From Escherichia coli (GTDB lineage: Bacteria > Pseudomonadota > Gammaproteobacteria > Enterobacterales > Enterobacteriaceae): DNA of 64,000 nucleotides. Within the stretch, counting starts at the first letter, position 1. Each line of letters begins with the position of its first letter. A program made the position numbers and the translations under genes. Shown here one piece after another: positions 2,946 to 52,757 of the stretch. The notes under the pieces were generated by a model. It saw only the letters and a list, made by a program, of their open reading frames with translations. It searched no databases and was not told where the DNA came from. Location of the stretch: NCBI RefSeq assembly GCF_041248615.1, contig NZ_CP158425.1; one strand, given 5' to 3'.

Positions 2946-3799
2946 GATTTCAGTTTATTACGGATTACCGTGGCTCTCTCTCACGTTCACGCATATGTCG
3001 TTTGATGGGCGTAACAGATCGTGGTTTACGTGCATGGAAACGCCGTCCTCCATCACTGCGCCAGCGTCGTGATCTTATACTTCTAGCGCATATACGTGAG
3101 CAGCATCGGTTGTGTTTGGGGAGCTATGGTAGGCCGCGTATGACAGAAGAGTTGAAAGCGCTGGGCCTGCAGGTTGGGCAGCGTCGGGTTGGACGTTTGA
3201 TGCGCCAGAATAACATTACAGTTGTTCGAACGCGTAAATTCAAACGGACAACGGATAGTCATCATACCTTCAACATTGCACCGAACCTATTAAAACAAGA
3301 CTTTAGCGCAAGCGCACCCAACCAGAAATGGGCAGGCGATATCACTTATGTTTGGACCAGAGAAGGATGGGTCTATCTTGCTGTTATCCTTGACCTGTAT
3401 TCCCGTCGCGTGATTGGCTGGGCAACAGGTGATCGATTAAAGCAGGATCTTGCATTAAGGGCACTGAATATGGCGTTGGCTTTACGCAAACCACCACCGG
3501 GTTGTATTCAACACACAGACCGTGGGAGCCAATATTGCGCTCATGAATATCAAAAGCTACTGCTCAAACATCAATTGCTGCCGTCCATGAGCGGGAAAGG
3601 CAATTGTTTTGATAACTCCGCAGTAGAAAGCTTCTTTAAATCATTAAAGGCTGAGTTGATTTGGCGCAGACACTGGCAAACAAGGCGAGATATTGAGATT
3701 GCAATCTTCGAATATATAAATGGCTTTTATAATCCACGCCGAAGACATTCAACACTCGGCTGGAAATCGCCGGTGGCATTTGAGAAAAAAGCCGCTTAA
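2942..3799 (+). CDS. IS1133 transposase OrfB (integrase core, DDE)
   Basis: 285 aa ORF overlapping OrfA in typical IS3 frameshift arrangement; DITYV...integrase core. Confidence 0.85.
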   Translation: MRFQFITDYRGSLSRSRICRLMGVTDRGLRAWKRRPPSLRQRRDLILLAHIREQHRLCLGSYGRPRMTEELKALGLQVGQRRVGRLMRQNNITVVRTRKFKRTTDSHHTFNIAPNLLKQDFSASAPNQKWAGDITYVWTREGWVYLAVILDLYSRRVIGWATGDRLKQDLALRALNMALALRKPPPGCIQHTDRGSQYCAHEYQKLLLKHQLLPSMSGKGNCFDNSAVESFFKSLKAELIWRRHWQTRRDIEIAIFEYINGFYNPRRRHSTLGWKSPVAFEKKAA

Positions 3800-49575: not shown

Positions 49576-50307
49576 ATGGATGCTTTCAATCTGCTGTGGA
49601 GCATTACGGGGGTAGCTTTCATTATCCTTATTTTCGTCGTGTTGCTGTGTCTGTTGGGTTTTATGACCTCTGCCATAGCGGAACGGCGGACTGCAAAGGC
49701 AATTGAATCTGGGCTTCCTGAAGAAGCTCAGGGGCTACTTAGTGATCTCACCTTTCAGTTGTCGGCTCATAGCACTACTCAGGTTGATCACATTCTCGTA
49801 GCCCCACATGGTATATACGTCATAGAGCAGAAAAACTACGTAGGCAAGCTCTACGGTACTCTGGAGGAAAGCCACTGGCGGAAATGGACTCAGTCCCGAA
49901 CCCTCAAGTTGCAGAACCCGTTTAAGCAAAACCAGGGGCACATCAGGGCTATTCAGTCTGCTCTTAAGGCTAGAGAACTGGAATGTATCAATGTCGTCAT
50001 CATAAACGGACGTTGTAAGTTTGATGGCATCAAGCCGGAATGGTTATGTATGGGGATGGACGATTTTATCCATAAAGTCAAACAACGACGAGGGCTACGG
50101 TTGTTCACACCGGAGTCTGTTCAGCACATCTGTTCGGTGTTGAAGTCAACAAGGAAGTCGCCAGGGCTCTATACGGACCTTACTCATATTCACAACATAA
50201 CGACAAAGTACAAAGCCCCGATGAAATTCGAGCAACGAGTAACATACATTCTGCTCAACTTTATCCATTATCTGTGGGCAAGTCTGTTCACTAAGCAGAA
50301 GCCTTAG
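49576..50307 (+). CDS. NERD-domain protein with N-terminal membrane anchor
   Basis: DHILVAPHGIYVIEQKNYVGKLYG matches the NERD core; ATG one nucleotide after the peptidase stop. Confidence 0.65.
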   Translation: MDAFNLLWSITGVAFIILIFVVLLCLLGFMTSAIAERRTAKAIESGLPEEAQGLLSDLTFQLSAHSTTQVDHILVAPHGIYVIEQKNYVGKLYGTLEESHWRKWTQSRTLKLQNPFKQNQGHIRAIQSALKARELECINVVIINGRCKFDGIKPEWLCMGMDDFIHKVKQRRGLRLFTPESVQHICSVLKSTRKSPGLYTDLTHIHNITTKYKAPMKFEQRVTYILLNFIHYLWASLFTKQKP

Positions 50308-51012: not shown

Positions 51013-51297
51013 TTATTTAAGCTGGTCATCGTCTCTGGCCAGCATAGCCCAACCATTCGACTGGTTTTCGCGGGAGTAAGGATTCATTTCAAAATAACTA
51101 TCTACCGCGTCGCTGTCCGCAACAGAACTGTTGTTAGCTCTCTTTGAACCCTGAACCACTACAGCATCAACCTCTGCGGCTTTCCCGTTGCGCTGTACCA
51201 GGATTTTAACCGTCTTGGGCTTACGTCTTGCGAGCAGTTTGTTGGCGATAAAAAGCACAACAATCCAGGCCAAAAGCACGTATAAAAATTTATTCAT
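51013..51297 (-). CDS. small membrane protein (94 aa)
   Basis: N-terminal TM helix MNKFLYVLLAWIVVLFIANKLL. Confidence 0.4.
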   Translation of the reverse strand: MNKFLYVLLAWIVVLFIANKLLARRKPKTVKILVQRNGKAAEVDAVVVQGSKRANNSSVADSDAVDSYFEMNPYSRENQSNGWAMLARDDDQLK

Positions 51298-51451
51298 AAT
51301 GCCCTCCTTTGTATGTGATTATTATACCTGCTTCCATTGCAGGCCAAACAGGTTCGGTGTATGAAAAATAGACTTCTCTCCGGCGTATAGCAATCTACTT
51401 ACTGATCTGTTTTCGTATCAAACTGTATGGCATAACCGAGGGGCGTACGTG

Positions 51452-51653: not shown

Positions 51654-51956
51654 TCAGTCACCACCACCACCTCCTCCTCCTCCTCCTCCACCGCCACCAT
51701 CACAACCACCAGCTATGCTATTTTCACCATTACAATCACCTCCGAGGGGGTTCAAATGGCTGCTCCCCTGTAGATGGTGTCCTTGCCAGATCGAACCCGA
51801 ACCAGCGCCTCCTGAGCGTCTTTGCTTGCCCTGAGGCAATTGTGCAGGCTCACCAGCACCGGCGGTCCCAAAAATGTCCCGGGCAATTTTATAAAGAAGG
51901 TAAAAAGGTACGCCCAGCATCATAAAAAAGATTACTGAAAATATTACACGTTCCAT
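51654..51956 (-). CDS. small membrane protein with C-terminal poly-glycine tail
   Basis: N-terminal TM helix; C-terminus GGCDGGGGGGGGGGGGGD encoded by the GGN repeat tract; strand chosen by neighbours. Confidence 0.35.
   Translation of the reverse strand: MERVIFSVIFFMMLGVPFYLLYKIARDIFGTAGAGEPAQLPQGKQRRSGGAGSGSIWQGHHLQGSSHLNPLGGDCNGENSIAGGCDGGGGGGGGGGGGGD
51661..51707. repeat. CCN/GGN trinucleotide repeat tract
   Basis: caccaccaccacctcctcctcctcctccaccgccaccatcacaaccacc. Confidence 0.8.
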
Positions 51957-52388
51957 TGATGATCTCCTGTCTTGTGAGAGACCAGTTATATCAGGGTGAT
52001 TCAGTATTTCCGTTTAGAAAAGAGTACTAATTTGGCCCTGTTCGATCTTAATTTGCCATCCGGGAAAAAGTCATAGGGATAGGCCTGCCAGAGTCAATAA
52101 CTTCCAGTGATCTGGAGGAGACCCCGGCTCTCTGAGCCCTCATGGATGGTACGGCTTTACCCCCTGTAAACAGATTCACGTTCCGCAGGACAAACATCGA
52201 CTACTGACGTCTCATATTTGCTGACGCTAATCCGACGTCTCATTGCCGTCTGCTTGTTTTCTTTAAAGGGTGTATTAGACGAATATCAAATCGGAATGGT
52301 AGGGGATGTGTGGGCACCATGCCCGGCCCTCTTTGAGCATCTGAGAGATTGGAGACCTAGCCGGGTAAGATAGCTACTTTCTTACGGG

Positions 52389-52757
52389 TTACCCTTCAAA
52401 TCCAAAGACGAAACGGACGCTGCCGTTCTCCACGTGGAGACGCTTTACTTCTTCGACAAATTCCTGGATCACCTCTCCGGCGTTATCGGGTGGTATGGCT
52501 GACAAAATTTCTTCCGAAGTCAGCCATGAGTATGAATGTTCACCGAATAAATCATCATCTTCGGACGGTATATCATCAGGTAATCCGCGTAATGCGTGGA
52601 TAAAAACTGCTGATGTGCTCGCCCTTTCACGATCTACATCAAATCCGAGCCAGGCAAAGTGGAGATATGATCGGTCCCCTTTATAATTGCTTGATAAATT
52701 AATCCATTTACCAGGCTTTTCTTCCCTTTGAAATCGCCAGCAGATATCAACGCCCAT
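52389..52757 (-). CDS. hypothetical protein (122 aa)
   Basis: ORF only. Confidence 0.35.
   Translation of the reverse strand: MGVDICWRFQREEKPGKWINLSSNYKGDRSYLHFAWLGFDVDRERASTSAVFIHALRGLPDDIPSEDDDLFGEHSYSWLTSEEILSAIPPDNAGEVIQEFVEEVKRLHVENGSVRFVFGFEG

Follow-up and report, generated by a model that had tools for sequence, protein, structure and literature searches.

The question raised by this locus was whether a 100-aa ORF that runs out into a long tract of glycine codons is a real gene, and what the repeat within it does to its product. The ORF lies at 51654..51956 on the minus strand of the window, that is, the whole stretch of 64,000 nucleotides that was analysed; it begins with ATG and is annotated in RefSeq as a "hypothetical protein" (WP_000442694.1). 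Its 13 Gly codons formed a compound microsatellite, GGT GGC GGT (GGA)6 (GGT)4, at 51660..51698 (minus strand), with the GGT GGC GGT block at 51690-51698, the (GGA)6 block at 51672-51689, and the (GGT)4 block at 51660-51671. These codons were followed by GAC and then TGA, so that the protein terminates in Asp. The preliminary description of this DNA had recognized the 13 consecutive Gly and their coding by a mixed GGT/GGA/GGC tract; its statement that the protein ends in glycine did not hold, as the end is Gly13-Asp, and its coordinates for the tract, 51661-51707, also took in the preceding GGT GGT TGT GAT. The Gly tract was the sole period-3 tandem array within the 64-kb window and the only run of at least five GGN codons on either strand, and a run of at least eight GGN codons was found in none of 200 shuffles. 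The tract is a feature that did not arise by chance.

The sequence of the protein can be written as MERVIFSVIFFMMLGVPFYLLYKIARDIFG...NPLGGDCNGENSIAGGCD-G13-D, with an N-terminal membrane helix, a G/S/Q-rich disordered region, and a tail reading ...AGGCD-G13-D. The hydrophobic segment VIFSVIFFMMLGVPFYLLY, encoded by codons 4-22 (51891..51947, minus strand), contained the Kyte-Doolittle maximum of the protein (2.24), and AlphaFold, run without an alignment, predicted a helix over residues 2-32 (pLDDT approximately 90) and disorder in the rest (pLDDT <55). The hydropathy peak and the AlphaFold helix supported the N-terminal transmembrane helix previously proposed for the 100-aa ORF, and the product is most likely a very small single-pass membrane protein of predicted topology. 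Ahead of the Gly run, the Cys75-Cys85 segment (GGDC NGENSIAGG C; 51702..51734, minus strand) held two Gly-Gly-x-Cys modules. Upstream of the ORF, on the same strand, a Shine-Dalgarno sequence, AGGAG, was read 7 nt 5' of the ATG (51964..51968). An extended -10-like element, TGATATAAC, located approximately 30 nt 5' of the ATG (51985..51993), was picked out by comparison with IncHI1-type plasmids as a putative promoter from which the ORF would be expressed. A promoter and terminator scan found neither a full consensus sigma-70 site nor a terminator serving the ORF. An Rfam search gave a match to Mu-gpT-DE at 51954-51996 (minus strand), over the ribosome-binding site and the start codon; it was below threshold (24.4 bits against a gathering score of 49, E = 0.035) and was treated as a chance match. 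A GGTCTC...GAGATC hairpin was seen by eye in the same interval and could partly sequester the predicted Shine-Dalgarno sequence. Approximately 250 nt 5' of the ORF, a 10-nt direct repeat, ATGAGACGTC, occurred twice, 28 nt apart (52206-52215 and 52234-52243, minus strand), and its second copy was mostly kept as GCGAGACGTC in the diverged relative L010 described below; this repeat could be due to chance or could be a binding site. A repeat search of the surrounding array of small genes found no common operator-like motif.

The window was 100% identical to many IncHI2A/MOBH/MPF_F plasmids of 210-300 kb, such as pSTM6-275, and the matching plasmids, with 976-978 records in PLSDB, came from Escherichia, Salmonella, Enterobacter, and other hosts. 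Judged by its sequence, the window is IncHI2 plasmid backbone adjoining the Tra1 relaxase block. The Gly-tail ORF was located within a minus-strand array of small hypothetical genes (394, 93, 92, 98, 145, 180, 122, 100, 94, and 120 aa), which heads toward the end of the Tra1 block on the opposite strand, where the genes for mobI, the MobH relaxase, TraD, DUF4400, an S49 peptidase, and a NERD protein were found. Weak PADLOC matches, with E-values of approximately 1e-5 to 1e-6, were obtained between the terminal NERD-domain protein of Tra1 (49576-50307, plus strand) and nuclease-related regions of PglW and MkoA. The downstream neighbour of the ORF encodes a 94-aa single-helix membrane protein (51013..51297, minus strand) and stands conserved beside the Gly-tail ORF in all IncHI types. 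Approximately 90 nt 5' of this 94-aa gene (51298-51390, minus strand) were strongly conserved between IncHI2 and IncHI1, with the remaining spacer scrambled, and the conserved block contained GGTATAAT and a AAAGGAGGGCAT ribosome-binding region. The block is probably the 94-aa gene's own promoter, in which case the Gly-tail ORF would be a separate transcription unit. The upstream neighbour encodes a 122-aa hypothetical protein (52389..52757, minus strand). In IncHI1-type plasmids its slot holds a DUF905 gene, and a homologue with 45% identity to the 122-aa protein was found at another place in IncHI1 plasmids; the protein also gave weak matches to two uncharacterised PHROG families. The plasmid pSTM6-275 has been typed as IncHI2 ST3 (PMC5923156), and a proteomics paper is available for IncHI1 (PMC5390554). 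Literature searches on the accession, on IncHI2 transcriptomes, and on pSTM6-275 yielded no mention of the Gly-tail ORF.

To judge whether the ORF is a real gene, the same position was compared in IncHI1-type plasmids. The genes flanking the ORF in the window had 45-58% identical homologues in IncHI1-type plasmids, and eight flanking genes were orthologous between IncHI2 and IncHI1-type plasmids with 53-78% identity. In the same slot, an ORF of 77-91 aa was found in pHCM1, R27, IncHI1B-type plasmids, and two further lineages. The R27/pHCM1 counterpart was a 77-aa hypothetical protein (WP_000925846.1), whose gene lies between the 181-aa/DUF905 genes and a 104-aa membrane-protein gene and is convergent with the NERD-S49-DUF4400 genes of Tra1. 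The IncHI1-type counterparts carried the same CAGGAG-N7-ATG start context as the window ORF, and their loci had TGATATAAA or TAATATAAA, a T(G/A)ATATAA element, at the position equivalent to TGATATAAC in the window. Their products consisted of an N-terminal membrane helix, a basic juxtamembrane stretch, and a Gly/Ser-rich region, followed by a tail of one or two Gly-Gly-Cys modules with the invariant end ...AGGGCGGGGD. Within the IncHI1-type family (61-74% protein identity), every indel was in frame, the last 12 residues were invariant, and DNA divergence began directly 3' of the stop codon. In this family dN/dS was 0.40-0.81; the corresponding ranges were 0.31-0.44 in the membrane protein encoded next to it and 0.06-0.33 in two further neighbours. 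The syntenic IncHI1-type ORFs, the in-frame indels, and the invariant C-terminus together gave good, though indirect, evidence that the Gly-tail ORF encodes a real, rapidly evolving protein with a constrained C-terminus.

The IncHI2 and IncHI1-type proteins showed no significant similarity by BLASTP (E = 2.2), hhalign aligned the glycine tail alone, and a search with an IncHI1 profile did not retrieve the IncHI2 proteins; the common ancestry that we infer for the two groups therefore draws only on position (synteny) and architecture. The R27 WP_000925846.1 group shared with the window ORF the syntenic slot, the start context, the helix, the basic juxtamembrane stretch, and a Gly/Cys tail ending in Gly-n-Asp, but differed in being shorter (77-91 aa) and in having a length-invariant tail with no microsatellite; it is equally uncharacterised. 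If the ancestry is accepted, the IncHI2 tail A-G-G-C-D-(G)n-D would correspond to an ancestral A-G-G-G-C-G-G-G-G-D in which Gly4 has been expanded. In most IncHI1 PLSDB records the counterpart was unannotated (2953-3186 in locus L027), and in IncHI1B-type plasmids the Gly-rich DNA was assigned by PGAP to a 46-aa ORF of a different frame, WP_154591402.1 (3501-3776 and 3682-3822 in locus L028), whereas the RefSeq record of R27 does annotate the 77-aa form. The IncHI1-type counterpart, the dispensability of the gene, and the lineage-specific origin of the pure repeat were points absent from the preliminary description.

The alternative that survived best, although we consider it unlikely, was that the ORF is not a gene and is a chance ORF over intergenic DNA holding a GGN microsatellite, stop-free in several frames. 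In its favour, searches of Pfam, NCBIfam, PADLOC, PHROGs, and PDB sequences gave no family match for the ORF or its small neighbours, and when the protein without its Gly tail was searched exhaustively with phmmer against 1.84 billion representatives, only IncHI2 variants and compositional matches in long low-complexity proteins were retrieved, and no relatives beyond IncH plasmids. The high dN/dS, the frequency of frameshifted or truncated versions in assemblies, the failure of PGAP to call most IncHI1 counterparts and its choice of another frame in IncHI1B-type plasmids, and the two ORFs open on the opposite strand would also fit such a chance ORF. However, the start context, helix, Gly/Cys tail, and terminal Asp persisted in at least five diverged lineages with in-frame indels only, conservation ended at the stop codon, and codon usage favoured the annotated frame alone: the codon-usage score was positive only in that frame (0.12 bits per codon, similar to the neighbours) and was negative in every frame of the flanking spacers. 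The two opposite-strand ORFs, one encoding poly-Pro and the other a His/Leu-rich product, were rejected as genes on their negative codon scores.

Considered within IncHI2 alone, the case for a gene was thin. The only clearly diverged relative there was L010 (Logan SRR26673770, 424-744), with approximately 95% DNA identity. It differed from the window ORF by seven non-synonymous and four synonymous changes, and the ORF and its flanks were equally conserved; by this comparison, selection on the ORF within IncHI2 is weak. In L010, a 1-base deletion upstream of the tail, either real or an assembly error, placed the tail out of frame, and the tail was shorter and interrupted (GGT GGC GAT GGA GGA GGT GAC GGT GGC GGT GAC).

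It had been proposed that the trinucleotide repeat could expand or contract in frame, and that tract length should be compared among related plasmids. For this comparison, PLSDB was searched by BLAST with a 161-base query centred on the tract together with synthetic alleles, both longer and shorter, which brought rare variants to the top of the ranking. Ten length alleles were read in representative records, with 9-17 Gly and proteins of 96-104 aa. Expressed as numbers of (GGA, GGT) units, these were 6,4 (13 Gly, the window allele), 9,4 (16 Gly), 8,4 (15 Gly), 5,4 (12 Gly), 4,4 (11 Gly), 2,4 (9 Gly), 3,10 (16 Gly), 3,11 (17 Gly), 5,6 (14 Gly), and 4,7 (14 Gly), and the GGA and GGT blocks were thus each variable in copy number. 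An additional 90-aa allele with just three Gly was found in the protein collection. The proposed in-frame expansion and contraction was thereby confirmed among related IncHI2 plasmids, and invariance of the tract was not seen. Allele counts were taken from BLAST span lengths, with reading confined to representatives, and the records lack phylogenetic independence; on this basis there were approximately 471 modal, 23 longer, and 21 shorter records. Approximately 44 of approximately 515 pure-tract plasmids (~8.5%) were non-modal, usually with identical flanks, and 13 Gly was a strong single mode (~91% of pure-tract plasmids). Between plasmids differing in the tract, the flanking ~920 bp showed 0-3 substitutions, indicating that the tract is a mutational hot spot.

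Hundreds of short-read contigs of 20-68 kb terminated exactly inside the Gly tract (loci L021-L025), leaving "partial" proteins of 86-94 aa at contig ends, among them P0040 (205 contigs), P0041 (136 contigs), and P0042 (127 contigs). With only 18 nt of pure GGA, a graph cycle is not the cause of the contig breaks, which reflect either difficulty in sequencing the G-rich repeat or genuine differences in tract length within a culture. The two commonest alleles, the 100-aa form of the window and a 99-aa form of the R478 type, were absent by exact look-up from a collection of 15 billion proteins, although both occurred in hundreds of PLSDB plasmids each and rarer variants were present in the collection.

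The variability depended on the purity of the repeat. Approximately half of the IncHI2 records, mostly from Enterobacter and related hosts, belonged to an R478-type lineage with an interrupted tract, GGA GGA GGT GAC GGA (GGT)4, encoding GGGGGGDGGGGGD; this tract had one modal length in approximately 450 records, and seven records were one codon shorter. In the IncHI1 counterpart, which has a non-repetitive Gly-rich tail, all 50 sampled records had a span of 191-192 bases, and identity was at least 99% in 207 of 217 records. Interruption of simple repeats stabilises them against slipped-strand mispairing, and instability is expected to track purity; the observed relation between instability and purity therefore fits replication slippage. 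The unit is one codon, so slippage leaves the frame intact and switches nothing on or off. All alleles being in frame follows from the 3-base unit, and hence is no evidence of selection. We propose that, in the IncHI2 lineage, the few Gly residues separating the last Cys from the terminal Asp (Gly4 in the IncHI1-type) may have grown into a pure (GGA)n(GGT)n run, in which slipped-strand mispairing during replication would gain or lose whole codons, giving tails of 9-17 Gly with a mode of 13 and the frame retained. The length changes would then be tolerated slippage in a spacer-like tail, presumably neutral, and not a regulatory switch.

With bacterial SSR contingency loci, the tract shared a pure short in-gene repeat that mutates far faster than its flanks (at least ten length alleles on near-identical flanks) and that is stabilised by interruptions. 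It differed from them in its three-base unit, which alters protein length and never the frame, the alleles read being in frame and encoding 96-104 aa. With other homopolymer tracts encoded by trinucleotide repeats it shared the length polymorphism of a disordered tract caused by gain and loss of codon repeats; here, the tract forms the very C-terminal part of a membrane protein of 100 aa. To our knowledge, homopolymer tracts encoded by codon repeats are rare in enterobacterial plasmids.

Natural knock-outs of the gene were widespread. In R478 and many other IncHI2 plasmids, IS10/Tn10 cut the ORF after codon 49 with duplication of the 9-bp target CGCTCAGGA, which is intact in the window (51810..51818, minus strand) and which we take to be close to the Tn10 hot-spot consensus GCTNAGC. 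The Tn10-truncated 64-aa product was found in 717 index blocks of the assembly collection. An IS3-family element interrupted the counterpart in one IncHI1A plasmid (L029). Plasmids with an interrupted ORF were typed as conjugative by PLSDB. The gene is dispensable, as shown by the Tn10 insertions in R478 and hundreds of assemblies, and it is evidently unneeded for maintenance, transfer, or spread of the plasmid. Overall, we favour as fairly probable that the Gly-tail ORF is a real, fast-evolving IncH accessory gene, dispensable to its plasmid, in which tail length reflects tolerated slippage in a spacer-like tail.

An adaptive role of tail length was weighed against tolerated slippage. A tail exposed at the surface or in the periplasm might be under diversifying selection, with the repeat sampling lengths that could affect mating, exclusion, or phage/host recognition. 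The tract is a true mutational hot spot, at which plasmids that are otherwise identical carry many different alleles, and this is compatible with such tuning; the retention of the C-terminal Cys-Gly-n-Asp across IncH types suggests that the tail matters somehow, and the hundreds of contigs ending in the tract could reflect within-culture heterogeneity. However, sequencing trouble on G-rich repeats is well known and explains the contig breaks equally well. The lengths were concentrated in one strong mode, the changes were in frame with no on/off switching, half of the IncHI2 plasmids carried a stabilised interrupted tract, IncHI1 plasmids had no repeat, and Tn10 knock-outs were widespread, all of which made adaptive tuning quite unlikely. 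A more specific proposal, which we regard as speculative and improbable, is that the Cys-Gly-n-Asp end is the functional tail of a new IncH family of small membrane proteins, the repeat giving heritable and reversible length tuning. Such a tail might be modified, or might dock onto a partner linked to Tra1, for example the S49 peptidase encoded next to it or the disulfide enzymes of the plasmid itself, and within-culture length heterogeneity would then explain why assemblies break there.

A type I toxin-antitoxin-like module, with the ORF encoding a small membrane toxin whose helix is active and whose tail is irrelevant, was very improbable. The N-terminal hydrophobic helix, which is kept in the Tn10-truncated 64-aa form, and the long, conserved upstream untranslated region would suit a toxin of this kind. 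Typical type I toxins such as Hok are hydrophobic peptides shorter than about 60 aa and are paired with a cis antisense RNA. The Gly-tail protein, at 100 aa, is longer than these and had no similarity to Hok or other toxin families; an Rfam search and a terminator scan detected no antisense RNA family or terminator, the sole RNA match being sub-threshold and unrelated to antitoxins.

The suggestion in the preliminary description that the Gly-rich C-terminus recalls microcin precursors fared worst, as every decisive test was against it, and a microcin or other ribosomally made modified peptide precursor is largely refuted and extremely improbable. The tail does carry a long glycine run and Gly-Cys dipeptides, in presumed likeness to McbA of microcin B17, and small size, a glycine run, and Gly-Cys dipeptides are features that we take to be common to McbA and class II precursors; only two Gly-Cys motifs were present, when compared with a microcin B17-type core. 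In place of a leader, the N-terminus formed a 19-residue hydrophobic helix with no double-glycine or McbA-type leader, residues 1-32 containing no Gly-Gly cleavage motif of the class II type. No immunity, ABC/C39-exporter, YcaO, or McbBCD-type (cyclodehydratase, dehydrogenase) gene was found within ~6 kb, which upholds the earlier remark that no maturation genes are adjacent, and no immunity, C39 exporter, or cyclodehydratase gene was found in the annotated 64-kb equivalent. The protein also showed no similarity to solved microcin or McbA chains.

IncHI2 plasmids are major vehicles for mcr, ESBL, and metal-resistance genes, and most of their backbone genes are uncharacterised. The present locus has no bearing on any major open question, but it has practical consequences: the (GGA, GGT) counts of the tract are a fast-evolving length marker that could separate sub-types among IncHI2 plasmids that are otherwise identical when outbreaks are traced, and the tract accounts for the repeated breaking of contigs at this point when these plasmids are assembled from short reads. 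The variation of the Gly run looks like repeat slippage that a dispensable gene tolerates, rather than a switch or the mark of a microcin. The Gly tail is encoded by a microsatellite that is real but unremarkable, in a small, predicted membrane protein of IncH plasmids, and the locus points to an unannotated small-protein family, common to IncHI1, IncHI1B-type, and IncHI2 plasmids, that annotation pipelines have missed or miscalled.
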